A stretch of DNA of 64,000 nt from an uncultured Lachnospiraceae bacterium (GCA_964432825.1 CAYSOX010000001.1:781-64780); one strand, 5' to 3'; counted from the stretch's first letter, positions 24,074 to 64,000 are shown. Made by a program: numbers and translations. The notes: generated by a model not told the origin, from the letters alone.

Positions 24074-24151
24074 CGCGGAGTAGAGCAGTCCGGAAGCCCG
24101 CCCCCGCTCATAACCCAAAGGTCAGTGGTTCAAATCCACTCTCCGCAACCA
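24074..24151 (+). pseudogene. corrupted tandem copy of tRNA-fMet (anticodon and D stems disrupted)
   Basis: Identical to copy 1 except GCTCGTTGGG is replaced by GCCCGCCCCCG. The 5' anticodon-stem strand CCCCCG cannot pair with CCCAA, and the D stem gains an A:C mismatch. The whole 124-nt unit, including the terminator, is duplicated (23859-23982 vs 24068-24192). Confidence 0.75.
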
Positions 24152-45701: not shown

Positions 45702-45779
45702 TATTTTGTGTAAACCAATTTTGGATGTATAAAGATGTAATCCGGACGCACGAAAACATAAAATAAATCCTTATTTTAT

Positions 45780-45839
45780 GTCGGGGTGCAGAGGACTTTC
45801 ACCCCGACCCCGCCAAATTCTTTGGCGGGGTTTTCGTGC
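45780..45839 (+). repeat. REP-like double hairpin
   Basis: gtcggggtg..caccccgac, then ccccgccaaattctttggcgggg, then ttttcgtgc. Followed by the attccggccgttcggtttatgtgggcggaac module. Confidence 0.7.
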
Positions 45840-45942
45840 GGAGAAATTCCGGCCGTTCGGTTTATGTGGGCGGAACAGTTTTTGTATAATTTATGTGTGC
45901 AAACAACATAATAATATTGATAAAATTTGTCTGAGGTGGGGA

Positions 45943-46983
45943 ATGAAAAAAATATTTTGTGTTGTATTAAGTTTAATAATATTTTTCGGGCTTTTTGGGA
46001 TTTTATTGTTAGACAACTTGCACCAAAACAGAAATTTTTTTGCAAATTGTTATGATTGTATAACAAATTGTGTTTCTGCAAGCCAAGAAAATTACCGCAT
46101 AACTAAGGATATTGTCCGCCCCGAGTTAGATGAAATTTATAATGTTGCAAAAACAACCAAAAATTATATCGGAAATTCTTTTAATACAACCCCAAACAAT
46201 TTGCAAAAAATGTACAACCAAAAACTTTTAAACCTTGCAAACACGGGCGAAAATGATTTAATAACTAAAAATCCCGAAACGAATATTTCCGCTTCATCTA
46301 AAACAAAACCGCAAATGGCAATAGTTATTGACGATTTTGGCTATGACCGAAAAGGTGTTGAAAAAATGCTTAATCTAGATTGCACATTAACAATTGCGGT
46401 AATGCCCGCATTGGAATTTTCTGAAGCAGATGCAAAAACCGCTCACGAAAAGGGGCACGAAGTAATTTTGCATATGCCAATGGAGGCTTACGGCAATCTT
46501 CCGCTATCATGGTACGGACCCTTGTTTATAGCAAATAACGACACCCCCGAAGTCGCTTACAACAAGATAAATCAAGGAATAAACAGCATTCCTTATTGCA
46601 ATGGGGTGAATATCCATATGGGAACAGCCGTTAGTCAAAACAAAACCTTAATGCGAGAGGTATTAAAAGCCACCAAAGAACGAAATTTAATCTTTTTAGA
46701 TAGCCGAACCATAGAAAACACCGTTTGCGAGGAGGTAGGCAAGGAAGTGGAAGCACCCGTTGTGCTACGCGATGTCTTTTTAGAACACGGCGGAGCAAAT
46801 TATGGTGTTACCACCGACCGCATAACCGAAGCCATAAATCTTTGTTTAAAAAATGGCAAATGCATAGTAATTGGGCATATAGGCTCAGTCGGACGCGATA
46901 TAACTGCCGAATGCTTAAAGGCAAACTTAAACCGCATAAAGTCTGCAGGTATAGAAATTGTGCCACTTTCCGCCTTTAAGTAA
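45943..46983 (+). CDS. divergent polysaccharide deacetylase family protein (YibQ-like), membrane-anchored
   Basis: The ATG at 45943 follows gaggtgggg. N-terminal TM. AIVIDDFGYD, HEVILHMPME and GVNIHMGT motifs. The upstream part of the 45778 ORF translates a REP element and is rejected. Confidence 0.85.
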   Translation: MKKIFCVVLSLIIFFGLFGILLLDNLHQNRNFFANCYDCITNCVSASQENYRITKDIVRPELDEIYNVAKTTKNYIGNSFNTTPNNLQKMYNQKLLNLANTGENDLITKNPETNISASSKTKPQMAIVIDDFGYDRKGVEKMLNLDCTLTIAVMPALEFSEADAKTAHEKGHEVILHMPMEAYGNLPLSWYGPLFIANNDTPEVAYNKINQGINSIPYCNGVNIHMGTAVSQNKTLMREVLKATKERNLIFLDSRTIENTVCEEVGKEVEAPVVLRDVFLEHGGANYGVTTDRITEAINLCLKNGKCIVIGHIGSVGRDITAECLKANLNRIKSAGIEIVPLSAFK

Positions 46984-47124: not shown

Positions 47125-47206
47125 ACCCCAAAATTGTTTGTAAATACAAAGAAAAGGTGTATAATGCAGATATAATATAACCAAAGTGTATGGAGAGGCA
47201 TCTTCA

Positions 47207-49247: not shown

Positions 49248-50063
49248 ATGATGGGTTTTCAGACTAAAATAATAACATGCTTTCTATCAATATTGGGTTG
49301 TGTCAGTGTTATGACAACCGGTGTTGTCGCTATATTATATCAAAATGACTTGCTTTTAATGAATAGTGAAACTATTGAAATGCAAGCCACATCAGGTAAA
49401 CTATATGTAATGCGTTTTGGGGCGGGATATTACGATATCTATGATAAAGAAAATTCCACAACCAAAAAACAACAGCCTTTGCTTCTTTTTGATGATAGCG
49501 AACTAGTTGACCAATCATTATATAATGACTTCTTATCAAATGTCACTTTCGCCCCTCAAACCGAACAAAGTTCTGAGCGTAAAATAGAGTACCTCTTTAA
49601 ATACGAACTTAATATGCTAAGTGAGGAAATTATTTATATAGCATTGGTAAATGAAAAACTCAACCAAATAAATGCTATAACTCGGGAAGACTTAGGAACT
49701 CCTTCCAAAATGTATCAAGCATCTTACCGCTTTGCATTCACCGAAGATGAGCCCGATAGTTGGTCAGACAATACTTCAATGGTATTATCTGAATATGATT
49801 TGTCCAATAAGGATAACTTCATCACCCTAGACCCCGAAGAAAATCCCGTCGTGTGGATTCGTTGTTCCCTCACACCAAAACAAAATTATGGTATAGAAAC
49901 AAGTTCAAATACTAATACTAGTGATGATGGAGCCACTTGGAAAGATGAAACTTCCGATTCAAGAGAATTCAATTCAAGCGTTTGGTCATTCACTCTTTAT
50001 TTCGGTAATGAACTCCAAACTCTAGACCAAAAGTTAACTTCCGAACAAAGCCCTAGCAATTAA
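49248..50063 (+). CDS. secreted/anchored hypothetical protein (271 aa) with TasA/SipW-type-looking signal region
   Basis: N-terminal hydrophobic segment ending ..VMTTGVVAILYQND. Extended -10 tgtataat at 49177-49184. No enzymatic motif. Confidence 0.7.
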   Translation: MMGFQTKIITCFLSILGCVSVMTTGVVAILYQNDLLLMNSETIEMQATSGKLYVMRFGAGYYDIYDKENSTTKKQQPLLLFDDSELVDQSLYNDFLSNVTFAPQTEQSSERKIEYLFKYELNMLSEEIIYIALVNEKLNQINAITREDLGTPSKMYQASYRFAFTEDEPDSWSDNTSMVLSEYDLSNKDNFITLDPEENPVVWIRCSLTPKQNYGIETSSNTNTSDDGATWKDETSDSREFNSSVWSFTLYFGNELQTLDQKLTSEQSPSN

Positions 50064-50225: not shown

Positions 50226-51542
50226 ATGAAATTAAAAAGCAAACTAATTGCGACTATCGTATCTATGTGTGCAGCAATCGCAGTTATGGGTGTTGGTGTT
50301 TGGGCTTCTACAGCACAAAGTTTCTCTTTGACAGTTAACAATGACGTAGATGTTAAAATTATCGGTGTAAACGCGGATATTTATGGTGAATTTGCTGTTT
50401 ATAGCCAATTTACAGGTCACACTACAGCTAGTGAAACTAATACATTTGCTGCAAAGTATGGTGCAACTGCAGTTGATGGTTATACTTCTCGTGAAGGATA
50501 TGACCATGGTTATCTTTTGTATGCTCAGAACATCGGTGTTAACGATGGTAAGAGAAATACTTATGATCCAACAACTGGAACATACGGCGGAAATGATTCG
50601 GAAGGTGCGGCTTTAGGCTATGGATATGATAAGTACATTAATGAAACTAAGAACAATGTTTATTTAGCAAGTTCTAATGGAACATTAGTAAATAATAATA
50701 CTAGCCCAGAAGGAACTCAAAACCTTCGTACTGGTACAGGCACACAATCTTATGACAATATCTACAATGTTGACTTTACAACACACCAAGCCCAAGTTAC
50801 ATATTTGTATACAATTAATCAATGGGCTGAAACATCTGGAAATAACGCTATTTATACAGATATTTCAATTAATTTAAGTAGTGATTTAATTGATGCAATA
50901 AATGGAACTGTGAAAAATGGTGCAAATGCACAATTTAGACCTTATGTTTATGTTGGTAAAGTTGGTGAAGGTTGGTATCAACAAAATATGACGGTTGCTA
51001 ACAATGTAGCAACTACTAAGTTCGAAATTCCTTCAGACGCTGAAAATGATCAAGTATACTATGTATTATTGACATTTACATTTGCAAGAAACAATGCAAA
51101 CTTGGATTTGAGTTCTTTAAGAGATGCATTAAATCACTCTATTGAATTCAAGGCAGAGGTTTCTGAGACTTATAATTCATACAAAGCAGCTGGTCAAGGT
51201 TCAAGCGTTTATATGTACACAGCAAATGCTAATGATACAGCCCAAAATGGTGGTTGTAAAATTACTGGAGAGTCATGGAACATTGATGCTTCCAAAACAA
51301 CCGATATCTCAACTCAAATTTCTGGAGTTGCATATAATGATGCAAGATTAAAGAATTGTTTTGCTTTAGAAACCGAAGATACAACAACATCGCATTTGCC
51401 AAATGGTTTCCTTTATACTGGAACTAGCGCAGAAGATTCAACACCTCACGCAAGCGCATGGACTTGGCTAATTGACCTTAACCAAGGTAAGAGAACTGCT
51501 TCATTTGGAAATGGTTTCGATACGACTGGCAATGGGGATTAG
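50226..51542 (+). CDS. secreted T/N/G/Y-rich protein (438 aa) with TasA/SipW-type-looking signal peptide
   Basis: The ATG at 50226 follows aaggag. MKLKSKLIATIVSMCAAIAVMGVGVWASTAQSF resembles the TasA signal ..LALVGGGTWAAFND. By eye, codon usage is ggt/gct/act/aac-rich, like rpoA and rplQ. Confidence 0.8.
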   Translation: MKLKSKLIATIVSMCAAIAVMGVGVWASTAQSFSLTVNNDVDVKIIGVNADIYGEFAVYSQFTGHTTASETNTFAAKYGATAVDGYTSREGYDHGYLLYAQNIGVNDGKRNTYDPTTGTYGGNDSEGAALGYGYDKYINETKNNVYLASSNGTLVNNNTSPEGTQNLRTGTGTQSYDNIYNVDFTTHQAQVTYLYTINQWAETSGNNAIYTDISINLSSDLIDAINGTVKNGANAQFRPYVYVGKVGEGWYQQNMTVANNVATTKFEIPSDAENDQVYYVLLTFTFARNNANLDLSSLRDALNHSIEFKAEVSETYNSYKAAGQGSSVYMYTANANDTAQNGGCKITGESWNIDASKTTDISTQISGVAYNDARLKNCFALETEDTTTSHLPNGFLYTGTSAEDSTPHASAWTWLIDLNQGKRTASFGNGFDTTGNGD

Positions 51543-51690
51543 TTTAAAGGTTATTAACTTGTTCTAAACAAGTATAAAAATTAGAAAATCAAACAAACAG
51601 GTGGCGGGGAATAGAGGATAAATCCTCAAATTCCCCAACCTCTGTTCTAAATTATAATTTAGAATAGTTCAAAAACTATTAAATCAATTA

Positions 51691-51730
51691 AAAACCTATA
51701 CTTTCGTTCGCCCGAAAGTATAGGTTTTTA
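51691..51730 (+). terminator. intrinsic terminator downstream of the 50226 gene
   Basis: aaaacctatactttcg / cgaaagtataggtttt 16-bp stem followed by ta-tata. Confidence 0.75.
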
Positions 51731-51868
51731 TATACACAAAACAAAAAACAAAACTCTCATTCGTTTGCCCGATTGAGTAGTTTTTTTATCTTTATTTAAT
51801 TGTGTTTAAGTAATATAATATGACACAATAGAATGGCGACACTAGTAGTTTTGCTTGAATTTTATGAG

Positions 51869-51991
51869 AAAAATTCACAAAACAGGTTGCTGGTAGTATT
51901 ATTACACCAGCGTTCTATTTTGGGTGTTTTTTCATAAAAGGCGAGTAAAACTACGGCTAATTGGTGCCGGCGGTTCGGGTAGACCGCCGGA
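51869..51991 (+). repeat. composite intergenic element copy E4
   Basis: cacaaaacagg..GCTGGTagtattattaCACCAGC..ctattttgggtgtttttt, then cataaaaggcgagtaaaactacggctaat, then ccggcggttcgggtagaccgccgg. Confidence 0.7.
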
Positions 51992-52100
51992 ACAACCCTG
52001 TTCGCCCGTTGATGTTTTTTAATGTGTAACTTTATTGTAACAATTGCCCAAATTACAGGTTTAACCCCCGTGGGCGAACTGTCGATAAAATTCGATATTT

Positions 52101-52159
52101 TGTAGGGGACGGATTCTATCCGTCCCGTGTATCAAAACAAAGTTTTGATGTCTTTGTGC
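52101..52159 (+). repeat. REP-like double hairpin (GTAG head)
   Basis: tgtaggggacggattctatccgtccc, then atcaaaacaaagttttgat, then gtctttgtgc. Confidence 0.75.
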
Positions 52160-52199
52160 ATTTAATATATTTTATTATCTTATTATATATTTGTAATTC

Positions 52200-52263
52200 G
52201 TACAAAGACACCCGCCAAAATATATGGCGGGCGTGCGGGTCGGGTAGTACCCGACCCCTACAT
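52200..52263 (-). repeat. REP-like double hairpin, inverted partner of 52101-52159 (BIME-like pair)
   Basis: The reverse complement reads tgtaggggtcgggtactacccgacccgcacgcccgccatatattttggcgggtgtctttgtac. Confidence 0.75.
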
Positions 52264-52570
52264 TATATTATTCCGCCCGTCCTTGTTTCAAGCGGTCGGA
52301 ATGTAATTTACTTAATTACGATTATTATAATCTAAATCTACTAAATTTTATGCAAAAACCTTAGTTAAGGGGGTAAATTTCGTAAAATTTTTAAAATATA
52401 CCCCCTTAACTTGCATTTTTGCTTAAATATGTAATCTTAAGACTATTTTATATATTTTTTAAATTCGAAATTTACTGTGTGAGTGGTTGTGTTTATGATT
52501 ATATATCATAGTTTTGACAATGTTAAAAGCACAAAATTGCAAAAATTTTACAAAAATAATGTTTTAACTA

Positions 52571-52599
52571 TTGACTTTTGTGCATAATATTAGTAAAAT
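52571..52599 (+). promoter_or_regulatory. sigma-70-type promoter of the ATPase-RloB pair
   Basis: TTGACT, 17-nt spacer, TAAAAT, 25 nt before the start codon. Confidence 0.5.
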
Positions 52600-52623
52600 A
52601 TAATAAAAGAGAGGGAAAACGGA

Positions 52624-53913
52624 ATGTTAGTAAATTTCAGATTTCAAAATTGTCGTTCGTTTTATAATGAAAACCAATTGAGTTTACAGGCGACAAATGA
52701 TGACGAGTTAAAGGATATTAACACATTTGAGATTTCTCCAACCTTATTTAATAAAAACGAGAACAATCATTTGTTAAAAAGTTCTGTAATTTTTGGGTGC
52801 AATGCGTCTGGTAAATCAAATGTAATTAAGGCTTTATCTTATATGTATAATGCTGTTAGATTATCTTCTGCGATGAATATAATTGAAACCAATAATTATT
52901 TTTTATTCTATGATGAATCATATAATAAAGAATCGTTGTATGAGGTAGAGATTATACAAAATGGTGTTTTGTATACATATGGTTTTACAATTTTACAGCA
53001 AAAAGTGCAAAAAGAGTGGTTATATAAAAGAGTTGAGCGGAATTCAAAGGTGTTTGAAAGGAATGGTAATAAAGTTGAAATTTCTGGCAATAAAGCAGCG
53101 GTTTCATTGATAAGAGTTCCGGATAGTGCCTTGTTTTTATCAATTGGTATGAATTTTAACCTTACAATTGCATCAAATTTAAAAGATGTTTTGGATTGGT
53201 TTAATAATTTAATTATTGTTTTTGAAGATAGGATAAATATATTGGATATTTATTCTGTTGATAACAAAAAATATAAACATTTAGCACTTGAAATATTAAA
53301 GAAAGCAGATATTGGCGTAACTGATATGAATGTAGTAAAAGATAAAGTTGCGGATTTAAAATCATTAAATGATGTTCTAAATTTTAATGTTTCATTGCAA
53401 ACAAACAAGAGAAGATTTGGACAACTTAAGCAAGAAGACCAAAATATGTATAATATAGACCTTGATACTAGTTTTAATGTTTATAATAACAGAAACGAAA
53501 AGGTGAGGGATTTTGATGTTTTGTTATACAGGGATGCGGGGTTTCATTCTGAGGGAACAATAAGGCTGGTAAATTATTTGGGGCTTATTTTGGCTGCTCT
53601 TGATACGGGTAGGGTGATTTTGATGGATGAAATTGATTCAAAATTACATTTCTTAGTAGTAGATTATTTATTAAAGATGTTTAATTCTATTGACAAAAAT
53701 CCACATAACGCACAACTTGTTTGCACTGCACATAATTGTTTGCTTATGGATGAGGATTTAAGGCGTGATCAAATATATTTCACAAGTAAAGATTCTGTTG
53801 GTGTAAGCACATTAGTTTCGCTTTCGGATTTTAATGGTGTGCGAAAGAATGATTTGTTTAGCAAAAAGTATTTGGCGGGGTTTTATTCTATGCTCCCAGA
53901 ATTCGATAATTAA
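52624..53913 (+). CDS. AAA15/AAA21-type ATPase, AbiLi-like (OLD-family ATPase module without nuclease)
   Basis: MLVNFRFQNCRSF start, Walker A GCNASGKSN, Walker B ILMDEIDSKLH and CTAHN. RBS gagagggaaaacgg. Confidence 0.85.
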   Translation: MLVNFRFQNCRSFYNENQLSLQATNDDELKDINTFEISPTLFNKNENNHLLKSSVIFGCNASGKSNVIKALSYMYNAVRLSSAMNIIETNNYFLFYDESYNKESLYEVEIIQNGVLYTYGFTILQQKVQKEWLYKRVERNSKVFERNGNKVEISGNKAAVSLIRVPDSALFLSIGMNFNLTIASNLKDVLDWFNNLIIVFEDRINILDIYSVDNKKYKHLALEILKKADIGVTDMNVVKDKVADLKSLNDVLNFNVSLQTNKRRFGQLKQEDQNMYNIDLDTSFNVYNNRNEKVRDFDVLLYRDAGFHSEGTIRLVNYLGLILAALDTGRVILMDEIDSKLHFLVVDYLLKMFNSIDKNPHNAQLVCTAHNCLLMDEDLRRDQIYFTSKDSVGVSTLVSLSDFNGVRKNDLFSKKYLAGFYSMLPEFDN

Positions 53914-53921
53914 GGAGGGGT

Positions 53922-54548
53922 ATGGCTAGGAGACAAGAGTTTTTAAAGGTAAGAGATGTTTTTTATATTTTAACCAATGGTGAATGTTCGGAAATGAATT
54001 ATTTCGAGTTGATTAAGTCTAGAAAGAGTATATATGATGTTAAAGTGAAATATCTCAATGCAGACCCAGTTGGCTTGGTGAAATTTGCTATTGGCTTGGC
54101 GAAAGATGTGAACCAGGTTTGGTGTGTTTTTGACATAGATAATACTTTCAATGATAATAGGCTTATTTCTGCCATAAATTTGGCAAAGTCAGAACACAAT
54201 ATACATTTAGCTTTTTCGAATACGGCATTCGAAGTTTGGTTGTTGTCGCACTTTCATAAAATAACTAAACCTTTAAACAATAACGAGTTAATAGAAGAAA
54301 TGAATAGTTTATTAAAGAATGAGTTGAATTTACATTGTAAGTATAATAAAGGTGATAAAAATCTAATTAAAAAGTATTTTATACCACAAATTGATAAAGC
54401 GTTGTTAAATACTAAGGTTGGATATCAAAAATTTGTAAAAGAACATTATGAACAATATCCACAAAACGATAATTACCAAATTTGGGAATGGAATCCTTGT
54501 TCAAATATCTTTATGTTAATAGAGGCATTAAAACTGCAAAAAAGATAA
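53922..54548 (+). CDS. RloB-like protein, AbiLii-like
   Basis: ILTNGECSEMNYF, VWCVFDID and LAFSNTAFEVWLLSHF match the RloB pattern. Starts 8 nt after the ATPase stop, with RBS aggagggg. Confidence 0.85.
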   Translation: MARRQEFLKVRDVFYILTNGECSEMNYFELIKSRKSIYDVKVKYLNADPVGLVKFAIGLAKDVNQVWCVFDIDNTFNDNRLISAINLAKSEHNIHLAFSNTAFEVWLLSHFHKITKPLNNNELIEEMNSLLKNELNLHCKYNKGDKNLIKKYFIPQIDKALLNTKVGYQKFVKEHYEQYPQNDNYQIWEWNPCSNIFMLIEALKLQKR

Positions 54549-54576
54549 AAACAAGTTTCTGACTCACTTAATTATA

Positions 54577-54609
54577 GGTAGGCGATATATTTTCGTCTAC
54601 CTTATTTTT
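54577..54609 (+). terminator. intrinsic terminator after the RloB-like gene
   Basis: ggtaggcga / tcgtctacc stem followed by ttattttt. Confidence 0.75.
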
Positions 54610-55249: not shown

Positions 55250-57910
55250 ATGAGCAAACCAAGGAATAAGAAGAATAGGGAGTCGGAGTATTCAACCCGT
55301 TGGCTTGAAATACTTGACACCGTTACAAACATTATCATTATTCCGATTTTGGTGTTAAGTGTAATATGTTCTATTGTTATGATTAACGCCAAAAGGAGTA
55401 ACAATGTGCCAAACTTGTTTGGCTATTCTTTGGTTACCATTCTTTCCGGAAGTATGGAAAATTCAGGCTTTTATGAAGATGATACGGTAATAGTTAAGGA
55501 TATTGACACTTCAGAAATTGAAGTCGGCGATATCATAGCATATTACACATATATAGAAACATATTCGGATATAAAGCAGGCGGCACAAACAGCCTCTGCA
55601 CAAGAAAAAACCGAAATAACTGAGGCTAGTTATTTAAAAGATGGGGGCAAGGTTCCTCCAGATAAAAGCACGGTTTCATCGTGGAAATTGCAGTTAAATA
55701 AGATTTTTGCAAACCTTACATACACGGCAACAGATGCAAGTGAGCGTGCGATTCGTGCAAACAAAAAGATTACCTTCCACCAAGTCGTTGATGTTATTGA
55801 TTACCAAAATTCTAGGTGGTTTAAAACATGGGGAACCTCAAACCTAGATAGTCACGGCAACCCAAATTATGACTCTTATTGGATTAAAGAAGATTATATT
55901 ATCGGTGTTTACACTAATACTAGTTTGGTAGTTAGAAGTTTCTTAGGCTTTGCAAGTACCAATACGGGTATTATTTGGATGGTCGAAGTTCCAAGTGGTG
56001 TGCAACTTATTCTTTCCACACTAGAACTTATTGAAATTATTGATATGATGGGCAGAGTTAAGCACGACCAAATTAAAAACGGAACATATGTAGACCGTTC
56101 GGCGTACAGGCAAATGCTTAGAGAGAGGCGAAAACTTTTAGCCTCAGGTAATATTGATGTGGACACCTATAGAAGGTTTTATCCACCTTACGAAAATTAC
56201 GACATCAAAAATAATAACAGGGATATTCTTAAAACTTCAATTACGGCTAATGGTCCCCCAATGTTCCAAGATGCATCGGGTGCTTATGCACAGTCTCTCG
56301 GACGGGGACAGCCAAACGATTTGACTTACGGCAGAAATGGTCCACCTTGGAGTGATACCGGTGGTGGTACACCTCGAAACGGTCCACCTTGGAGTGATTC
56401 AGGGGGCGGAGGCCCAGCGAGAAACGGTCCACCATGGACTGACTCAGGAGGCGGAGGCCCAGCAAGAAATGGTCCACCTTGGAGCGATACCGGTGGTGGT
56501 ACACCTCGAAACGGTCCACCATGGACTGACTCAGGGGGCGGAGGCCCAGCGAGAAACGGTCCACCTTGGAGCGATTCAGGTGGCGGAGGCCCAGCAAGAA
56601 ATGGTCCACCTTGGAGCGATACCGGTGGTGGTACACCTCGAAACGGTCCACCATGGACTGACTCAGGGGGCGGAGGCCCAGCGAGAAACGGTCCACCTTG
56701 GAGCGATTCAGGTGGCGGAGGCCCAGCACGAAATGGCCCATCAAAAGCGTATAAACAATCGTTTGATAAACTAGATGGCGAGAGGACTAAAAAACTCTTA
56801 AATTCTAGACCTAATCAAGTTATAAATGAGTTGGAATCTGAAGATGAACTTACACTATTTGCAAAAATAGTTAGGTCGCTGAAAACTAAGCTTGCAAAAA
56901 CCGTTAATAGATTTGCAGTAAGACTTGGTATAAACGAAGTTCTGTTAACTTCAGCCGAAATTAATGAACTTGAAGATATGTATAATTGGGTAGGGTTCTG
57001 CTTTGTATCAAAGGCAAGAATCTCAAGGAAGGGTTATGTTGTAGAGCCTTCCCGTAAAAACCGCATATTCCTTATCGATAAGAGGACAATGAAACAATAT
57101 TCACTAGAGCCACTTGGCACTGTTTATGGCGTTTCATGTGGTCTAATCACTAGCGAAAAGGGTCTATTCAAACCAATTGCAAGACCTGAGGGAGTTGTGT
57201 TTGAACGAATTGAAATTGACTCTAAATACACGGTCGTTAAAACAATGCAAGACACATTCGGCAACGTCTACATTGGTATCACAAACGGCCCTGAAGAAGA
57301 GGAAGTTAAATACACTTCAGACGGCAAACGAGTAAGCTTGTGGAACAGAAATGCTTTACTTGCTCTCGGCAACGACAACAGATTGTATTTTGTTACAATG
57401 GACGACAGTTTCAATATTGAAAAAGGCAAGATTACCGATCTTAAAGTAATTAACAAAGAAGGTTCTCTGGTGGCTGTTATGCCAACCGAAAACACTAAAC
57501 TGGTTCGCTTTAAAGATGGTTATGATAGATATGGATTTGTTTATTATGATGGTAACTTCTTATGCCTCGATAATGGTAATAAGTACTTTAATATTAGGAC
57601 GAAGGAAACATATTCGTTGCCAATTAATTGTTGGCAGTTATCCGAAGACCAGTTAGCGATTGCACTTAACGACGGAAATCTTTACAAAGTAAAGGTACAA
57701 GATGTCTTGAATGTATTCGCGAGTGGGGAGGGTGTAAATTCAATCCAAGAAAAACAATTGCTTTTAAAGAATGTCTCTCGGGCAAACATTAGAGGTGATA
57801 GTTTAGAGTTTACATCTACAGATGGAGATAATCGATTTGTTGCTCCTTTAACGGAGGAGTTCCTCGCGCGGGCTCGTGTAAAACTTGGAGTCGACCAAAG
57901 CACTGAGTAA
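55250..57910 (+). CDS. SipW/ER-type signal peptidase I fused to GPPW repeats and a ~390-aa unknown C-terminal domain
   Basis: TM1, Ser box TILSGSME, GDIIAY, His box ITFHQVV, KTWGTSN and a second TM FLGFASTNTGIIWMVEVPSGV parallel B. subtilis SipW. Nine RNGPPW[ST]D[ST]GGG units and a motif-less beta-rich region follow. RBS taggagac. Confidence 0.8.
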   Translation: MSKPRNKKNRESEYSTRWLEILDTVTNIIIIPILVLSVICSIVMINAKRSNNVPNLFGYSLVTILSGSMENSGFYEDDTVIVKDIDTSEIEVGDIIAYYTYIETYSDIKQAAQTASAQEKTEITEASYLKDGGKVPPDKSTVSSWKLQLNKIFANLTYTATDASERAIRANKKITFHQVVDVIDYQNSRWFKTWGTSNLDSHGNPNYDSYWIKEDYIIGVYTNTSLVVRSFLGFASTNTGIIWMVEVPSGVQLILSTLELIEIIDMMGRVKHDQIKNGTYVDRSAYRQMLRERRKLLASGNIDVDTYRRFYPPYENYDIKNNNRDILKTSITANGPPMFQDASGAYAQSLGRGQPNDLTYGRNGPPWSDTGGGTPRNGPPWSDSGGGGPARNGPPWTDSGGGGPARNGPPWSDTGGGTPRNGPPWTDSGGGGPARNGPPWSDSGGGGPARNGPPWSDTGGGTPRNGPPWTDSGGGGPARNGPPWSDSGGGGPARNGPSKAYKQSFDKLDGERTKKLLNSRPNQVINELESEDELTLFAKIVRSLKTKLAKTVNRFAVRLGINEVLLTSAEINELEDMYNWVGFCFVSKARISRKGYVVEPSRKNRIFLIDKRTMKQYSLEPLGTVYGVSCGLITSEKGLFKPIARPEGVVFERIEIDSKYTVVKTMQDTFGNVYIGITNGPEEEEVKYTSDGKRVSLWNRNALLALGNDNRLYFVTMDDSFNIEKGKITDLKVINKEGSLVAVMPTENTKLVRFKDGYDRYGFVYYDGNFLCLDNGNKYFNIRTKETYSLPINCWQLSEDQLAIALNDGNLYKVKVQDVLNVFASGEGVNSIQEKQLLLKNVSRANIRGDSLEFTSTDGDNRFVAPLTEEFLARARVKLGVDQSTE
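56333..56728 (+). repeat. coding tandem array: nine 42/45-nt units, including a perfect 132-bp tandem duplication
   Basis: Unit order is A B C A C B A C B (A=RNGPPWSDTGGGTP, B=RNGPPWSDSGGGGPA, C=RNGPPWTDSGGGGPA). 56465-56596 and 56597-56728 read identically. Confidence 0.95.
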
Positions 57911-58490
57911 ATTCTTAAATTTTCTCAGTGCGGTTGGCTAGAAAAACTCATTTAAAATTAGAGTTAAAATGGTTAAACAAAAGCACACCAAATTAAATTT
58001 AATCTAATCTAATTGAATGGGTAGAAACTGTGACATACAGAAAATTTAGAGATTAAACATCTATTTAGACGCTTTAAATTTGCTATTATAAGGTAAACTT
58101 AAAAAGCAAAATATTATTAAAATTTACATAACAATTGTGGTGAGAATATAAAAGTTAAATTAAAAACTTTCACGAATAATTCGTGACACTACAAAAGTTA
58201 AACCCGTCAATTTAAGTTTGGGTATATTAGAATATTCAAACAGATTGCGGTGCAATTCAAGTTATGTAAATTAATAGAGATTGCAATTCTCAGTGGAAAT
58301 ATAACTTAAAAGTATTTGTAAAATTACCATAAGTTAAAGATAAATTCACAATGGATTGCCGAGCGTGGCAAAATGTTGCCCACCCGAAATAAGCATTAAA
58401 TTAAATACACATCCATATTGTAGGTTCGCCACTACAATATGGGTGTGTTTTTATTTGTCCCGACCCATCGTTACCGGACCAGCGGACTAG

Positions 58491-58612
58491 GTCGGATACT
58501 ATTCGACCCCTACAGAAAAACTTCCGCTCGGCCTTACCGGACGGTCGGCACTGCCATCCGTATCTTTACTTATCTCTTGGGCTACAACAAAAAAACTTCC
58601 GCCCGTCTAAGC
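58491..58612 (-). repeat. partial composite element (E5) with single GTAG hairpin
   Basis: The reverse complement contains cccaagagataagtaaagatacggatgg, ccgaccgtccggtaaggccgagcggaag and tgtaggggtcgaatagtatccgac. Confidence 0.65.
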
Positions 58613-58665
58613 AATTCAAACTTATATTTCGTATTTGTTCAATCTTCAAAATAAAATCCTTATAT

Positions 58666-58724
58666 GTTGTAGGGACAGGATAGCATCCTGTCCGACGTTG
58701 CCCGAAACGGGCAATGTCTTCGTG
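58666..58724 (+). repeat. REP-like double hairpin
   Basis: tgtagggacaggatagcatcctgtcc, then gttgcccgaaacgggcaat, then gtcttcgtgc. Confidence 0.75.
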
Positions 58725-58757
58725 CATTAAACAAATTTAGTTGGTTGTAATCCAAAT

Positions 58758-58966
58758 TGAGGATATTTCGTAATTTCCCCGATAAATGTAAAATGTACAA
58801 AGGCACCTTTAACTACCATAATTTTGCATTTACGCGAATTTGTGCGGGACGGGTAGTACTCGTCCCGCACACCCGCCACATTTTGTGGCGGGAGTCTTCG
58901 TGCTAATTATAAACTTCGTACCAATTATAATGAAAGAATATCAAAACTTGGCGGGAGTCTTCGTGC
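58758..58966 (+). repeat. ~200-bp dispersed repeat, copy R2 (partner at 48628-48823), containing a REP double hairpin at 58841-58903
   Basis: gatatttcgtaatttccccgataaatgtaaaatgtacaaa ... gggacgggtagtactcgtcccgcacacccgccacattttgtggcgggagtcttcgtgctaattataaacttcgtaccaattataatgaaagaa ... gcgggagtcttcgtgc. Confidence 0.85.
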
Positions 58967-59131
58967 TTACAATAACTTAATACAATCATAATTTTTAACA
59001 ATTTTAATGTTTTGAATTTTGAGTTGTATGCATCAAGATTTATCGTTTTTTATCAATGATTTAAATTTTTTCTAAAATGCATAAAATGTGAAGGATATTT
59101 TGGGGTAACCTATTTACAAATTAAGATTTTT

Positions 59132-59839
59132 ATGGTAGTCTATAAGTACAATATAAAAAGCGGGGGATATGTTTTAGTGGTATTGTTTTTTTCAGAGATT
59201 AATAAGCCAATTGATTTTGGTGATAGAGCAATCGAGATTTTTAATAGTGTTCTAGTTCCTGTTTACAAAGATGGCAAAAGGGTTTTAACATACAAATTAG
59301 ACCTTGAAAATGACGAAGATGGGGAACTTAGTTTTGCTGAAATTGCCGCCAAAAAGGGCGAAATAAGTGACTATAAACACATAAAATCTATAGAATCCGA
59401 AGACGGAATTTTAGATGTGGACGAAATATTTGAAACCTTTTATGGCTACGTTAAAAAGGGAGTAAAACGCTTAGGATTTGACCCTGAAGAATTTATTGCA
59501 AGCGAAGGGAATATGGCGTTTGTTACAAATATGGCAATTTTTGATGAGGACGAGTTTGAAGAAAGTGGGAGCCGTGCCGTTTCCTATTGGTCAAAATATC
59601 GTATTGCTAAAATTAAAGGAAACCGAGCAGTTTGGTTTAATTCGTTGATTTCCGAAGATGAAAAAATGATAGAAAGTTTTTATGAAGCAGGTGCCGAACT
59701 TGTGGAACTTGAAGAGATTGCGATGGATTCTGGGGACCCGTTCTCGTTTGTAAAATGTTTAGGAATTGATTTTGAAAAAGCATTAACTGCAGAAGATGAA
59801 CAGAGTTCTGCCCCTCAAGAAGGCAAAATTACGATATAA
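59132..59839 (+). CDS. acidic cytoplasmic hypothetical protein (start uncertain)
   Basis: ORF only. The GTG at 59177 lies 9 nt after ggggga and is the more plausible start. No motif. Confidence 0.55.
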   Translation: MVVYKYNIKSGGYVLVVLFFSEINKPIDFGDRAIEIFNSVLVPVYKDGKRVLTYKLDLENDEDGELSFAEIAAKKGEISDYKHIKSIESEDGILDVDEIFETFYGYVKKGVKRLGFDPEEFIASEGNMAFVTNMAIFDEDEFEESGSRAVSYWSKYRIAKIKGNRAVWFNSLISEDEKMIESFYEAGAELVELEEIAMDSGDPFSFVKCLGIDFEKALTAEDEQSSAPQEGKITI

Positions 59840-59982
59840 TTTGGTTAATGTATTGGAGAATGCGGAAATGCCTTGATTATCCTAAATTTTGGATGGTTTG
59901 GGAGGGTATATCCTGTAATTTAATTCATATTTTTTGTTTAGAAAAAAACACCAACTCATAAAGGTTGATGTGTTTATAAGTT

Positions 59983-60015
59983 AAAAAATGCACCTAATTC
60001 GTGGTGCATTTTTTG
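59983..60015. terminator. bidirectional intrinsic terminator between convergent genes
   Basis: aaaaaatgcacc..ggtgcatttttt, with A-run and T-run flanks. Confidence 0.75.
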
Positions 60016-60051
60016 ATAAGATTTTCTCAGCGGTTGCGTACAAGTGGTATT

Positions 60052-61764
60052 TTATTTGATTGGATTTTCACTCTCGTTGAAACCAAAAGTCTTTTCAATC
60101 CCCTGAGTGGTTCGGTTTTGTTGTTTATATTTGTCAATATCTAAGTTTAAGGTGCTAATGCATAAACCTAAGATAACCATAAAGAATGGGTAGGTATGAG
60201 GCATTGTGTTTCCAAAAAATGCACTAATTGCATAACACATAACGCAAAATAACAGACATATAGATAGGTTAGAAATATGTTTAAAGTACTTAATTCCCTT
60301 AACTGCAATTATTACAAGCCCTGAAATATATAAAACTGCCGATAAAATTCCTGAATGTGCCGCAAATTGCAAATACTCATTGTGTGGCTTAACAATCATT
60401 TCGCCATCGCCAAAGATTGGATATTTTGAAATCTGTTCAAAAGCATCCAGCCAAAGTTCCCAGCGGTTTGTTCCTGCTTTTTTTGTTTCTTCAGCAAGTG
60501 GTGCACTAGATACTTTAAAGAAGTCTTTAAACACACCAGAAATTTGCATGTATAAACTTGAATAAGTTGAGTCCATTGGGCGGGCTAGAGGAATGCATAT
60601 AAAACTGATTGCCGTTAACATAATTAGTGGTGTAAAACTCAAAATATCAAATTTTCTGTTCTTTATACTAATTATGATAGGTAGTAAACAAAAGCCAAAG
60701 AATAGTGCAAGATTGCTACCGAGAGTATCATTAAACATCGCTACAAACAAGTGTAGGGCAAGTACTATGCCAAACATAATACGGGTTTTTAACTGTTTTG
60801 AAAGGCAAAAGCATACAGCAATTAAACTTGTTGCCAGACATAATACATAACCGAAGTGGTTGCTGTTTACAAATGCATATGCCCAGTTGGTGTTGTTTGA
60901 AAAAGATACGGCAAGTTCGGAGTGGTGGAAAAATAATGTTAACACACACATTATTGAGGTGGATGCTAAAAATACACCTAGAAGATGCTCTTTAACTGGT
61001 CGGTCTTTAAGTGTTATTGTAGATATTAATATTGCCAAGTAAACTACAAAATATAAAACACATTCTTGCAAATATGTACCATTGTCATAATCTAAGAAAA
61101 ACTTAAAGTTTGTAGGGAAATTGTTTGTAAAAAAACTTGTAAAAATCATCCATAAAAAACTAGTAATCAAAAGAAAACATTCTAAGCGGTTTTTAAAAAT
61201 ATGCTTTGTAAAAACTTTAAATGGTTTCCATTCTTTTTTAATGATGTAGTAAATATCAAATGGTAAAAAGCAACACAAAAATACCGCTGCGGTCAATATT
61301 ATAGGTAAATAGTTCATATGGAAAGGCCAAGGTGGGCTCGAAAAAATCAAATCAAACAAAGTCACTAAAACGCCCGAAATTAAAGGCATTAAAACTATAA
61401 GGTAGGGTAAAACAACGGAAGTTTTTGATTGGTTTTCGCTTCTTAAATCTTTAAAAATATCAAATTTCTTTTTATCGCTTTGTGTGTCAAGAAATTTAGG
61501 TGAGACATCTTCTAAATTTTCATCCGTCAATTCGGTAGTCTTTTTAGTTTCGGTCGAAATTTCAGAAGGTGTTGCGTTTTTAATTTCTTCGTCCTCTAAA
61601 GTTTCTATTTCAGAAATAGAACTTGTAGAACTAACATTGTGTGAGTTCTTTGTTTTTCGCCTAGTTTTATGTGGGGTAGAGGCAGAGTTGTTTAATTGGT
61701 CGATTGAAGTTGGTAAATTTTTAGAATCAACTTCGGGTTTAATTTCGTTGTTTTTTGTATTCAT
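60052..61764 (-). CDS. O-antigen ligase/polymerase-family (Wzy_C-like) membrane protein with ~110-aa hydrophilic N-terminus
   Basis: About 11 TM segments. VNSNHFGYVL and ..KPHNEYLQFAAHSGILSAV.. match the O-antigen ligase family pattern. Confidence 0.75.
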   Translation of the reverse strand: MNTKNNEIKPEVDSKNLPTSIDQLNNSASTPHKTRRKTKNSHNVSSTSSISEIETLEDEEIKNATPSEISTETKKTTELTDENLEDVSPKFLDTQSDKKKFDIFKDLRSENQSKTSVVLPYLIVLMPLISGVLVTLFDLIFSSPPWPFHMNYLPIILTAAVFLCCFLPFDIYYIIKKEWKPFKVFTKHIFKNRLECFLLITSFLWMIFTSFFTNNFPTNFKFFLDYDNGTYLQECVLYFVVYLAILISTITLKDRPVKEHLLGVFLASTSIMCVLTLFFHHSELAVSFSNNTNWAYAFVNSNHFGYVLCLATSLIAVCFCLSKQLKTRIMFGIVLALHLFVAMFNDTLGSNLALFFGFCLLPIIISIKNRKFDILSFTPLIMLTAISFICIPLARPMDSTYSSLYMQISGVFKDFFKVSSAPLAEETKKAGTNRWELWLDAFEQISKYPIFGDGEMIVKPHNEYLQFAAHSGILSAVLYISGLVIIAVKGIKYFKHISNLSICLLFCVMCYAISAFFGNTMPHTYPFFMVILGLCISTLNLDIDKYKQQNRTTQGIEKTFGFNESENPIK

Positions 61765-61868
61765 TATATTTTTCCTTTTATTGTGCTTTGAAATTTGTTA
61801 GTTTTTATGTAAGGCTAAAGAAATTAAAATTTAGCGTTTTGTTTTATAAATTTAACATTAGACGAGTT

Positions 61869-63275
61869 TTAGGTTAATACATTTTGGTCGGTTATAATTA
61901 TTCCACCAGTTTTAATAGTTTTTTGCATTTTATGTTTTGCAATATCCACATTTAAAAATCGGTAAAAAATGCCTAAAACCATTAAAAATAAACAACCTAT
62001 GTGAGGCATAATACTTATAAATAGTGCGGTAAAAAGGTGCGAAACACAAACACCCGCCAAAATTAATGTTAGCCTACTCAAATGTTTAATATTTGTGAAA
62101 AATTTAACAAATACTATTATAACGGATATTAATAACATTGTCAAACAAGGGATGCCCCAAATTTCAGCAATTTGTAAAATAAATGAATGCGGGTTTGTGT
62201 AGGTGTCACCATTTCCAAAAATAGGATTTTTTAACACATTGTTGAAACTTTGTTTAAAAATTTTAAATCTGCCCGTTCCTGCATTTTCTGAAAGAGTGGA
62301 GTTAGGGTTTTTAAATATTTCATTAATTTCAATAAAAAGGTTTTTAATTTCTTTAAAAAAGCCAATGTATTTACTGTAAAAATCGCTTGCAAGCAGTTCT
62401 ACGGCAAAAGATAGTCCAAGAAAAATTACCAAGGGCAAGATTGCAAAAGGATTAAATCTTTTGCTATAAAAATGCGAAATAATTGCAAGCAAAATTAGTG
62501 CTAAACACACACCCAACATACTAGAAAAGGTATTAGTTAAGGAGAGTACCACACAGTGTAGGCAAAATGCCAAAATGCTAGAAATTTTAATAAGTTTATT
62601 GCGTCTAAAAATGAACAAACCTGCAAGTATAATGGTGGGAATGGTGAGATATAAACCAAAGTTATTTGAATTGTTAAATATGCTACTCCAAACATCATTG
62701 CTCGGGTTATGAATTTTAAAGGTGCACCTCGGGTCAATCAAGATAAGCACGCAAAGGATTGTTGATGTTATGGCGATTGAAAATATAATATGTTCGGCTA
62801 TGTTCCGGTTTTTTAGACCAAACCCGAATACAAAACACATACCCACAAGCAGTATTATAGGAAATCCAAGCCCGATGCCAAAAGGACTTAAAACACTTGT
62901 GGTAAAACCGTTTTGTGCGGGACAAGAAATTGCTTGAACAATAGACGATGCCAATATCAAAATCAAACAAAGTCCTAGAGGTATAATTTCGAAATATCTT
63001 TTTAAAAATTCGGAAAAACTAAAACGAAATCTTCGTTTGCCAAAAAATATTCCTAAAATGTCAATCAATATAAAGAGAACGGGGAACAATATAAGTAGGT
63101 AAATATATTGAGAATAAAGGTTTAAAAAGTCGTGTTTAGCATCGGAAAATATTCCGACAATCAAACTTAAGATTATTGTAATTATTGGCAAAAAGGATAA
63201 AATGTAGCAAATCCAAATTGAAGATTTTGCCTCGTTTTTGATGGACTTATAATTGATAAATAGTTGATTTTTCAT
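61869..63275 (-). CDS. O-antigen ligase/polymerase-family (Wzy_C-like) membrane protein, paralogue of 60052-61764
   Basis: NNSNNFGLYL and ..NPHSFILQIAEIWGIP.. motifs. The ATG at 63275 lies just after the uppP stop; the longer ORF to 63320 overlaps uppP and is rejected. Confidence 0.75.
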   Translation of the reverse strand: MKNQLFINYKSIKNEAKSSIWICYILSFLPIITIILSLIVGIFSDAKHDFLNLYSQYIYLLILFPVLFILIDILGIFFGKRRFRFSFSEFLKRYFEIIPLGLCLILILASSIVQAISCPAQNGFTTSVLSPFGIGLGFPIILLVGMCFVFGFGLKNRNIAEHIIFSIAITSTILCVLILIDPRCTFKIHNPSNDVWSSIFNNSNNFGLYLTIPTIILAGLFIFRRNKLIKISSILAFCLHCVVLSLTNTFSSMLGVCLALILLAIISHFYSKRFNPFAILPLVIFLGLSFAVELLASDFYSKYIGFFKEIKNLFIEINEIFKNPNSTLSENAGTGRFKIFKQSFNNVLKNPIFGNGDTYTNPHSFILQIAEIWGIPCLTMLLISVIIVFVKFFTNIKHLSRLTLILAGVCVSHLFTALFISIMPHIGCLFLMVLGIFYRFLNVDIAKHKMQKTIKTGGIIITDQNVLT

Positions 63276-63279
63276 AAAA

Positions 63280-64000
63280 TTACCAAATTGGATAAATAAA
63301 ATTTTGGATAAAACACACAAAAGATAGGATTGTCAAATATAAACTAAACCACTTAAAATTGCACTTACCAATTACTTTAATCATTAGTTTAATCGCCAAA
63401 AGCCCAGAAATTAATGAAGAAATAAATCCCAAAACTAGTGCAAGCCAATTAATTGAAACAAGTTCAACTTTAAATAGTTCTAAAATCAGCGAGCCTAAAA
63501 TTATTGGAATACTCATAAAAAAACTAAATTTGGCAATTGTGTCAGGTTGTTTTTTTGTAATAATTCCACCGAAAATTGTAGACCCACTACGACTTATTCC
63601 GGGTGTTAGGGCAACGCATTGAAACAACCCCATAACCAAGGCTGAACGGCTGTTAAACTCGCTTTTTAAAGCATACTTTTTGTTAAGTCTTTCGCCTAAA
63701 ATTAAGATTATTGCGGTAAACAAAAAGGTGAATGCCAGCAATTTCGAACCCGTCGCGTTTTCAAATAAATCACCAAGTGTAAAGCCTACAATAACAGCGG
63801 GAAGGGTGGCAATTATAAGCCACCAAATTGTTTTGTGGTTTTCAGGTTTTAGAAGTGAGACTAAGTCTTTAAAATAGTAAATTACAACAGAAACCAATGT
63901 TCCAAGATGTAGTATTATGGTGACAAATAAGGTATTTTCTGTAAGCCCGAAAATTTCTTGCAAAAGCAATAAGTGTCCACTGCTTGAAACGGGTAAAAAT
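63280..64000 (-). CDS. uppP: undecaprenyl-diphosphate phosphatase, 5' end outside window
   Basis: The window edge encodes ..FLPVSSSGHLLLLQEIFGL... GISRSGSTI motif. Multi-TM protein. Confidence 0.9.
   Translation of the reverse strand, partial: FLPVSSSGHLLLLQEIFGLTENTLFVTIILHLGTLVSVVIYYFKDLVSLLKPENHKTIWWLIIATLPAVIVGFTLGDLFENATGSKLLAFTFLFTAIILILGERLNKKYALKSEFNSRSALVMGLFQCVALTPGISRSGSTIFGGIITKKQPDTIAKFSFFMSIPIILGSLILELFKVELVSINWLALVLGFISSLISGLLAIKLMIKVIGKCNFKWFSLYLTILSFVCFIQNFIYPIW

Follow-up and report, generated by a model that had tools for sequence, protein, structure and literature searches.

Signal peptidases are normally minimal enzymes, and the sole hint of anything more, to our knowledge, is the 20-residue cytoplasmic tail of Bacillus subtilis SipW. 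SipW is substrate-specific, and its C-terminal 20 residues, which lie on the cytoplasmic (cis) side, have a second, regulatory role that is independent of peptidase activity (PMC8767453). In SEC11A and SEC11C, a conserved proline helix-breaker precedes a 13-residue 'pseudo-signal-peptide helix' able to span a thinned membrane; a green fluorescent protein tag at the C-terminus of SEC11 is cytosolic, and the authors suggest that the helix touches the h-regions of signal peptides. Here, we analysed a 64,000-nucleotide stretch of DNA from an uncultured Lachnospiraceae bacterium (GCA_964432825.1, CAYSOX010000001.1:781-64780; hereafter the window, with positions counted from its first letter), in which one gene encodes a SipW-type signal peptidase that runs on for 620 residues into a Gly/Pro repeat tract and a C-terminal domain of predicted beta-propeller fold.

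A conserved peptidase fusion of gut Clostridia

An AGGAG Shine-Dalgarno sequence lies 5 nt upstream of the ATG of the fusion gene (Table 1). The independent assemblies of ENA, Logan, NCBI and JGI yielded 33 homologues of 664–1068 amino acids (aa) in a full-length search, the E-values running from 0 to 1e-153. All of them share the same N-to-C architecture at 39–90% identity, and none is named or carries a Pfam domain. In an alignment of 26 of these proteins, the peptidase and C-terminal halves are both present wherever the contig permits, and two segments are densely invariant: residues 185–280, which comprise box E, the second transmembrane segment (TM2) and the juxtamembrane region, and residues 595–776. 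Homologue P0028 has almost no repeat array (a 9-residue tract) and is fused all the same; hence, the repeats are not needed for the fusion. The union of peptidase and extension is genuine and conserved, being neither a frameshift nor an assembly artefact. The long extension after TM2 that a first-pass annotation of the window had described is thus borne out, and the same fusion recurs in related genomes together with its neighbouring genes.

The window is chromosomal, with a G+C content of about 33%, and carries uvrB, uvrA, metS, cysS and tRNA-Met. The related loci belong to metagenome-assembled genomes of uncultured human-gut Clostridia, and the fusion family is so far confined to this narrow clade. 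Plasmid and phage collections searched with tblastn gave no match to the fusion, and in BFVD the best fold matches were RCC1-like propellers with non-significant E-values; a mobile-element origin was rejected on these grounds.

The N-terminal region is a divergent ER-type signal peptidase

Residues ~20–260 had been lined up by eye with SipW. In NCBIfam, the protein matched only the SipW model (NF046067, 52.4 bits against a cut-off of 190) and TIGR02228, the archaeal-type signal peptidase I (44.5 bits against 51.85), best over residues 25–102. A Pfam scan of the protein returned nothing at E<=1, and sequence searches of the PDB with the N-terminal region, as a single sequence or as a 10-sequence profile, gave nothing useful and did not reach SEC11. 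When a family profile of this region was run against 5.8 billion proteins, a graded chain toward canonical signal peptidases emerged. Its first tier consists of proteins P0038–P0046 (280–509 aa, 22–33% identity over 78–98% of the N-terminal region), and its next tier of proteins of ~200 aa, several of them called 'signal peptidase I' or matching Pfam PF10502. Alignment of the family profile with that of 18 canonical proteins, 17 of which match Pfam Peptidase_S26, gave a probability of 99.65% (hhalign, E 5e-25), from the first transmembrane segment (TM1) to the start of TM2 and skipping residues 100–173. Direct profiles thus fall below their cut-offs, whereas profile–profile comparison places the protein in the peptidase family S26.

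In a 39-sequence alignment of the family and its relatives, G58, S68, M69, D94, H177, T193 and G195 are invariant, and D208 is kept in 38 of the 39 sequences, behind a 6-residue insertion specific to the family. TM1 aligns with that of canonical SipW-like proteins both here and in hhalign. The N-terminal TM, the Ser box TILSGSME and the His box ITFHQVV had therefore been correctly recognized by eye, with the catalytic Ser and His invariant throughout; likewise, KTWGTSN does correspond to box E, since it aligns with the TKGDNN of the canonical proteins in both comparisons. Judging from these alignments, the N-terminal ~270 residues are a divergent signal peptidase of the ER (endoplasmic reticulum) type, S26B, and SipW-like.

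The insertion between the Ser and His boxes is real, as first noticed, but it is not peculiar to this protein: P0038–P0045 carry shorter insertions at the same site, so graded relatives of 280–509 aa have them too. In the AlphaFold2 (AF2) model the inserted segment is partly helical, at low confidence (predicted local distance difference test, pLDDT, below 50).

The extension comprises a Gly/Pro tract and a predicted beta-propeller

The Gly/Pro tract opens with an NGPP motif, residues 334–337, within a degenerate first repeat unit that begins at residue 332. The nine RNGPPW units that follow start at residues 362, 376, 391, 406, 420, 435, 450, 464 and 479. Tandem Repeats Finder delimits the array at 56333–56740, with a period of 132 nt in 3.1 copies, a 96% match and a sub-period of ~45 nt. 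N334 to P337 are invariant in the 26 sequences, whereas the length of the tract ranges from 9 to 345 residues, and close relatives differ solely in array length. AF2 predicts residues 300–500 to be disordered, with a pLDDT of ~30 over the tract. NGPP is retained in 26 of 26 sequences, and the remainder of the tract expands or vanishes; this conservation marks NGPP as a probable short linear motif. The nine units of the first-pass annotation are visible in the sequence, yet the exact count is insecure because the contigs of two related loci, L003 and L004, terminate at the start of the GPPW array or inside it, and because close relatives vary in array length. Short-read assemblies evidently break at the array, and repeat copy numbers across the family are unreliable. 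Two overlapping ORFs, 56247-56744 (-) and 56337-56774 (+), are by-products of the repeat.

For the C-terminal domain, AF2 on the 26-sequence alignment gave a pLDDT of ~85 over residues ~500–870. The model has a helical lead-in (residues 510–550) followed by a beta-propeller (residues ~575–866) with ~27 strands in roughly seven blades. A Foldseek search against the PDB returned 19 matches at E<=1e-3, all of them beta-propellers, at 8–13% identity and with a best E-value of 5e-5. They include the BT4663 and BT4673 sensors, WD40 and Kelch proteins, BamB and a puromycin hydrolase, and their superpositions were poor, with root mean square deviations of 12–20 A. By sequence, a profile of residues 497–886 built from 15 members and run against 1.84 billion representatives found six proteins, namely three family representatives and three short fragments; among these representatives, the domain has no relative outside the fusion family and never stands as a separate full-length protein. 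When the 15 members were scanned at E<=10, no Pfam family recurred and no profile of a propeller repeat family matched. NCBIfam held nothing credible for the domain, a match to a topoisomerase-subunit model being disregarded at E 0.09. Matches of phmmer to designed WD40 proteins (E 3e-16) were set aside as artefactual, as they place one 30-residue stretch against 8–13 identical units, each with a per-domain i-Evalue above 20, and were kept just as a hint. One blade, residues 675–704, is WD-repeat-like in sequence, with a non-significant per-domain match.

The C-terminal domain is, then, an orphan by sequence to which the models assign a generic propeller fold. The first-pass annotation had been right about a beta-rich region of ~390 aa lacking any Pfam or NCBIfam match, although the region is not unrecognizable, given the propeller found by AF2 and Foldseek. 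As to a partner or function of the propeller, the most economical idea would be that the propeller and NGPP associate with each other or recruit a partner, because propellers are classic readers of short linear motifs.

Topology of the extension

On which side of the membrane the extension lies depends on the segment equivalent to TM2. It comprises an invariant helix-breaker, Pro248, followed by a helix that is acidic on one face (E259, E262 and D265); these three residues and E246 are invariant. Around the basic juxtamembrane segment behind it, helices are predicted at residues 250–277, 283–298 and 304–309, and I275, G278, T279, Y280 and D303 are invariant.

Two figures for this segment count against a cytoplasmic extension and would allow it to lie outside. 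Its Kyte-Doolittle value is just 1.2–1.4, with four invariant acidic residues, and its Hessa sum, a crude, position-independent measure that gives -1.1 for TM1, is ~+6.8 kcal/mol compared with -3.9 to +2.5 in 30 non-family relatives. The second TM claimed at the outset therefore holds as a homologous segment with its conserved Pro in alignment, while its hydrophobicity is so marginal that the segment comes close to no TM being predicted.

These hydrophobicity figures, a stalk-like repeat tract and a purely envelope-related neighbourhood speak for an external C-terminus. The corresponding alternative, in which the TM2-like helix fails to cross the membrane, the Gly/Pro tract is a wall-spanning stalk and the surface-exposed propeller binds processed secreted proteins encoded upstream (A and B, below) or envelope glycans as a TapA-like anchor or assembly factor, is the most serious rival, even if we consider it unlikely. 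The unfavourable Hessa sum and the four acidic residues suit it well. Gram-positive surface-protein stalks are typically Pro/Gly-rich tracts of variable copy number, which this tract resembles. The conserved neighbours (Polysacc_deac_2, Wzy_C and BacA) are all envelope genes, and the best Foldseek matches, BT4663 and BT4673, are extracytoplasmic glycan-sensing propellers, although that similarity is generic across propellers. Against surface display stand the 14 Lys/Arg residues within the 65 that directly follow the helix, a strong stop-transfer signal, and the C-termini of SipW and SEC11C, which are cytoplasmic despite the marginal SEC11 helix. Moreover, relatives with a clear TM2 already bear Pro-rich tails, P0039–P0044 having a strongly hydrophobic TM2 and then Pro/Lys tails. 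Composition differs in the same sense, as the C-terminal domain is basic (pI, isoelectric point, 8.5) and contains Cys, whereas the external catalytic domain is acidic and Cys-free: there is no Cys in 4870 residues of this domain from 26 homologues, against 0.7% in the C-terminal domain, where one Cys is kept in 23 of 26. The Cys argument is weakened by the secreted protein B, which has 0.36% Cys.

Considering the homology to SipW and SEC11 and the Lys/Arg-rich segment behind the helix, we still favour a cytoplasmic extension, with real reservation. The location proposed by the first-pass annotation thus keeps these two supports, and the hydrophobicity of TM2 tells against it.

Proteins A and B carry a private signal peptide

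Upstream of the fusion gene lie the genes of two secreted proteins, A and B. The order A-B-peptidase was found in 8/8 related loci with enough upstream sequence, with B upstream of the peptidase gene in L001–L006, L008 and L009, and A upstream of B in all loci. Their signal peptides are similar in register, QTKIITCFLSILGCVSVMTTGVVA/ILYQ in A and KSKLIATIVSMCAAIAVMGVGVWA/STAQ in B, where the slash marks the putative cleavage site. The class-specific signal is nearly invariant (…AVMGVGVWA/S; consensus K-[LI]-[IV]…S…VM..G[VI]xA/). Six-frame scans of the window and L001–L007 found the motif solely at the N-termini of A and B; the pattern was derived from the A and B sequences themselves, and only its absence elsewhere is informative.

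Among 81 B homologues, the last ~29 share just the first ~45 residues (56–79% identity), their mature parts of 240–690 aa being unrelated. Conversely, P0139 and P0144 combine a B-type mature domain with a lipoprotein-type signal (…LSTAC) in a different context without such a peptidase. P0144 lies at L010 7001-8281 in a spore-forming Firmicute, next to YabP, YabQ and SpoIIE, with no peptidase fusion nearby. Judging from these sequences, the private signal peptide and the cargo domain of B are modules that can be separated.

AF2 predicts B to be a beta-sandwich (predicted template modelling score 0.77), for which Foldseek gave weak matches to jelly-roll, pilin and carbohydrate-binding-module structures. 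A TasA-like identity of B was rejected, as there is no sequence match and TasA falls outside the top 50 Foldseek matches; the operon analogy alone was kept. By that analogy with tapA-sipW-tasA, A and B are likely dedicated substrates of the peptidase. A conserved signal on variable cargo adjoins a peptidase with near-invariant membrane helices, as would be expected of a dedicated pair of signal and peptidase. The mature parts of A and B contain 28–31% Ser, Thr and Asn. Enzymes with a Wzy_C domain include protein O-oligosaccharyltransferases, and A and B might be glycosylated by the neighbouring Wzy_C proteins.

We regard it as quite improbable that the fusion is instead a general housekeeping signal peptidase that stands beside A and B through mere conserved gene order in a small clade. 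Conservation of the private signal peptide far exceeds that of the mature parts of A and B, and TM1 and TM2 are nearly invariant across the family, as would be expected of a co-evolving enzyme and signal and not of a generalist; furthermore, SipW-type enzymes are substrate-specific in Bacillus (PMC8767453). What such a role has in its favour is that the sampled clade is narrow, that the whole order from uvrBA to uppP is conserved, that the gene is transcriptionally apart from A and B in the window and that no other signal peptidase gene was seen within these 64 kb.

Catalytic residues

Two residues of the catalytic domain depart from the canonical pattern: Thr196 stands in place of the Asp of GDNN, and Gln178 in place of the Arg of the HR motif. 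The two positions covary in 39/39 aligned sequences (Arg/Asp, n=24; neither, n=15; mixed, 0), and the pair has been lost jointly in several independent sublineages. In the structure of the human signal peptidase complex, Asp116 of SEC11A, the equivalent Asp of the GD motif, forms a salt bridge with Arg97, and its mutation destabilizes the protein while activity is kept; Asp122, six residues further on, completes the Ser-His-Asp triad (bioRxiv 10.1101/2020.11.11.378711). Because the loss is coupled and the Asp116-Arg97 pair is structural, we read the family as having lost the structural Arg/Asp pair but kept a putative triad of Ser68, His177 and Asp208. On this basis, the fusion is presumably proteolytically active.

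A pseudo-peptidase, inactivated by the loss of the GDNN Asp and the HR Arg and now serving as a membrane scaffold or receptor, has only a slender chance of being the correct description. Thr196 and Gln178 do replace residues invariant in 24 canonical relatives, and the profile scores do lie under curated cut-offs. In addition, Asp106 of SipW is reported as essential (Tjalsma 2000, cited in PMC8767453), which leaves a small probability of a pseudo-enzyme should this be the box-E Asp that the family has lost. Nevertheless, Ser68, Met69 and His177 are invariant and Asp208 nearly so in the 39 sequences, the lost pair is structural in SEC11A, whose Asp116 mutant is active and whose triad residue is Asp122, and independent sublineages have lost it together.

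An artefact of assembly or a frameshift, by which the long ORF would unite the peptidase gene with an unrelated gene downstream, can be dismissed. In its favour, one could cite that the array troubles short-read assembly and that two related contigs end there; against it stand the 33 homologues of like architecture, P0028 included, and a C-terminal domain never encountered as a separate full-length protein among 1.84 billion representatives.

Proposed model

Our preferred model, held with middling confidence, is an active, substrate-dedicated S26B peptidase for A and B with a probably cytoplasmic NGPP/propeller interaction module. TM1 would anchor the fusion with its N-terminus inside, so that the catalytic domain (Ser68-His177-Asp208) faces outward and could cut the private signal peptide off the secreted beta-sandwich proteins A and B. 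The Pro-kinked helix equivalent to TM2 probably adjoins the bound signal peptide, adding to specificity, after which the polypeptide most likely re-enters the cytoplasm. There, the basic juxtamembrane segment, the NGPP motif (in nine copies here) and the propeller would form a protein-interaction module through which the peptidase might be linked to itself or to a partner inside the cell, serving clustering, localization or signalling; such a module could be an enlarged version of the peptidase-independent role of the SipW C-terminal tail. Within this model, the active, dedicated peptidase for A and B is the best-supported part, and the cytoplasmic interaction module is the part that we infer.

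Besides the topological figures given above, several results weigh against this model. No curated cut-off was reached by SipW, TIGR02228 or any Pfam profile. For the N-terminal domain, AF2 gave a poor model (pLDDT 30–70) with no usable triad geometry or TM packing. Neither A nor B has TasA or camelysin homology in Pfam, NCBIfam or PDB sequence searches. In the window, B and the peptidase gene cannot be co-transcribed, as a defence pair and a terminator-like hairpin stand between them, and the peptidase gene needs its own promoter. Finally, the neighbourhood contains no conserved gene for a cytoplasmic partner, all conserved neighbours being envelope genes.

A bolder version of the preferred model, which we think rather improbable, is a transmembrane coupling device in which the private signal is cleaved outside while, inside, NGPP(W) and the propeller bind each other or a cytoplasmic partner, so that sites cluster or flux is reported inward. 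If this were true, the isolated case of the 'bifunctional SipW' would become a modular signalling or organizing principle of dedicated signal peptidases.

Genomic neighbourhood

The features discussed are listed in Table 1. In the window and six related loci, the conserved gene order is uvrB, uvrA, a gene for a small membrane or surface protein, Polysacc_deac_2, A (198–285 aa), B (242–545 aa), the peptidase fusion, one or two Wzy_C genes and BacA/UppP. Two more metagenomic loci, reached via distant B homologues, keep the same order.

Table 1. Features of the fusion gene and of its surroundings in the window (slash, putative cleavage site of a signal peptide)
Feature	Position	Strand	Basis or remark
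SipW-type signal peptidase + repeat tract + beta-propeller, whole gene	55250..57910	+	886 aa, ATG start, single ORF
Basic N-terminus (aa 1-23, 6 K/R) and TM1 (aa 24-46), N-in signal anchor	55250..55387	+	Kyte-Doolittle 2.8 over aa 27-45; the 6 K/R within aa 1-17; alignment with canonical TM1
Extracytoplasmic S26B catalytic domain (aa 47-239)	55388..55966	+	NCBIfam, hhalign, conserved residues
Ser68 codon	55451-55453	+	Box B, TILSGSME with S68, M69
Insertion of ~74 aa (aa 100-173) between box C (GDIIAY) and His box	55547..55768	+	Gap in canonical relatives
His177 codon	55778-55780	+	Box D, ITFHQVV
Asp208 codon	55871-55873	+	Position of SEC11A Asp122, downstream of box E
TM2-equivalent (aa 240-268), GIIWMVEVPSGVQLILSTLELIEIIDMM	55967..56053	+	Aligned with TM2 of relatives; nearly every residue invariant
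Basic juxtamembrane segment (aa 269-333, pI 9.9, 14 K/R)	56054..56248	+	Composition, AF2, invariant residues
Disordered Gly/Pro tract (aa 334-496)	56249..56737	+	Invariant first NGPP (aa 334-337), then nine RNGPPW[ST]D[ST]GGG(G/T)P(A) units
Family-specific C-terminal domain (aa 497-886)	56738..57907	+	AF2, Foldseek, profile search
Protein A (271 aa), putative second substrate or accessory	49248..50063	+	Same signal class, …CVSVMTTGVVA/ILYQ
Protein B (438 aa), putative main substrate	50226..51542	+	Signal peptide MKLKSKLIATIVSMCAAIAVMGVGVWA/STAQSF, then beta-sandwich
Divergent polysaccharide deacetylase (Polysacc_deac_2), conserved neighbour	45778..46983	+	Pfam 8.4e-58; synteny
AAA_14/DUF4143 ATPase, inserted between deacetylase and A	47186-48535		Absent at this position in related loci
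AAA_21 ATPase + RloB-like pair (OLD/Rlo-type defence module), between B and peptidase gene	52624-54548		
Terminator-like hairpin behind the AAA_21 + RloB pair	54576-54602		
Two Wzy_C (O-antigen-ligase-like) membrane proteins + undecaprenyl-diphosphatase BacA/UppP, downstream	60052..63969	-	Pfam; synteny
Tandem Wzy_C pair	60052-63320	-	Pfam

The AAA_21 + RloB pair occupies the same place in L003 (7436-9360) and is absent from L001, L002, L004 and L006; L005 (12798-14051) and L008 (10815-12708) have, instead, a related AAA_21 gene downstream of the peptidase gene. Pairs of the AAA_21/RloB type seem to have landed at this locus repeatedly.

L001 and L002 lack the ~2.1 kb (57911-60051) that follow the fusion gene in the window. 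In 57911-59131 there is no ORF of at least 80 aa; a hairpin with a 17-bp stem and a T-run lies at 58407-58448, and a 235-aa ORF without a family match follows at 59132-59839. Rfam searches of the gaps 51543-52623 and 57911-59131 returned merely hairpins against miRNA models, all below the gathering score, and non-coding RNAs in these flanking gaps were rejected accordingly. Elsewhere in the window, a second tRNA-like match (24074-24148; RF00005, 31.4 bits, just over the gathering score) lies 130 nt past tRNA-Met, where ARAGORN finds none. A 916-aa ORF at 34175-36925 has a G+C content of 0.41 and an AT skew of 0.31 (elsewhere ~0.33 and ~0.1), and its sole recognizable part is a C-terminal DUF2188.

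Comparison with known systems

The SipW-type enzyme described here bears a conserved 620-residue module with a protein-binding type of fold, found in this fusion alone, and together with the private signal of A and B it looks like a dedicated sorting system in uncultured human-gut Clostridia, comparable to prepilin peptidase with pilins or sortase with LPXTG proteins. No account of such a fusion came up in a full-text literature search on SipW with a propeller. The family makes SipW bifunctionality and ER-type reading of the h-region (invariant TM2 against invariant signal) testable, opens the question of processing coupled to intracellular events and provides an annotation handle for ~80 unannotated secreted proteins.

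With SipW of B. subtilis, the fusion shares the N-in TM1, an external Ser/His(/Asp) domain with boxes resembling SGSME, His and TKGDNN, and a segment that aligns with the C-terminal membrane helix. It differs in its size (886 aa against ~190), in the ~74-aa insertion before the His box, in having HQ/GT instead of HR/GD, in a TM2 that is marginally hydrophobic and acidic, and in a C-terminal 'tail' of 620 aa that contains an NGPP array and a propeller. By profile score, which is far under the equivalog cut-off, and by the missing box-E feature, it is not a SipW equivalog. As in tapA-sipW-tasA, the peptidase gene stands beside genes of secreted proteins thought to be processed, which here share a class-specific signal peptide; unlike in the TasA/TapA system, these neighbours have no detectable TasA or TapA homology.

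SEC11A/C resemble the fusion in a Ser-His-Asp triad, putative in the fusion, with the Asp seven residues past the Gly of box E (plus the 6-residue insertion in the fusion), and in the Pro helix-breaker followed by a short, marginal C-terminal helix, which in SEC11 passes through a thinned membrane into the cytosol. However, SEC11 works in a four-subunit complex and ends soon after this helix, whereas the fusion runs on for 620 aa, has no evident accessory subunits and finds no PDB sequence match even with a family profile.

The nearest relatives, P0038–P0046 of other Clostridia, have the insertion at the same site, some of them with HQ/G[ST], and Pro/Lys- or Thr/Lys-rich tails after TM2, but their TM2 is strongly hydrophobic and they lack both the NGPP array and a globular C-terminal domain. 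The substrate link to A and B was not extended to the group of P0041, since L007, the sole context examined among the nearest shorter relatives, has no A/B-like neighbours. In P0039–P0044 (349–430 aa; e.g. L007 6001-7101), long Lys/Pro-rich tails end in a conserved PPKK, possibly a further linear motif of signal-peptidase tails and unrelated to the first.

Propellers of the WD40, Kelch, RCC1 and Reg_prop types (e.g. BT4663) share the predicted fold of the C-terminal domain, with about seven four-stranded blades, one of them WD-like, yet no repeat-family profile matches it and the structural matches reach 8–13% identity. Because P0038–P0046 already have the insertion and the Pro-rich tails, these features appear to pre-date the family, and the NGPP array with its propeller is, on this comparison, the family's own innovation.

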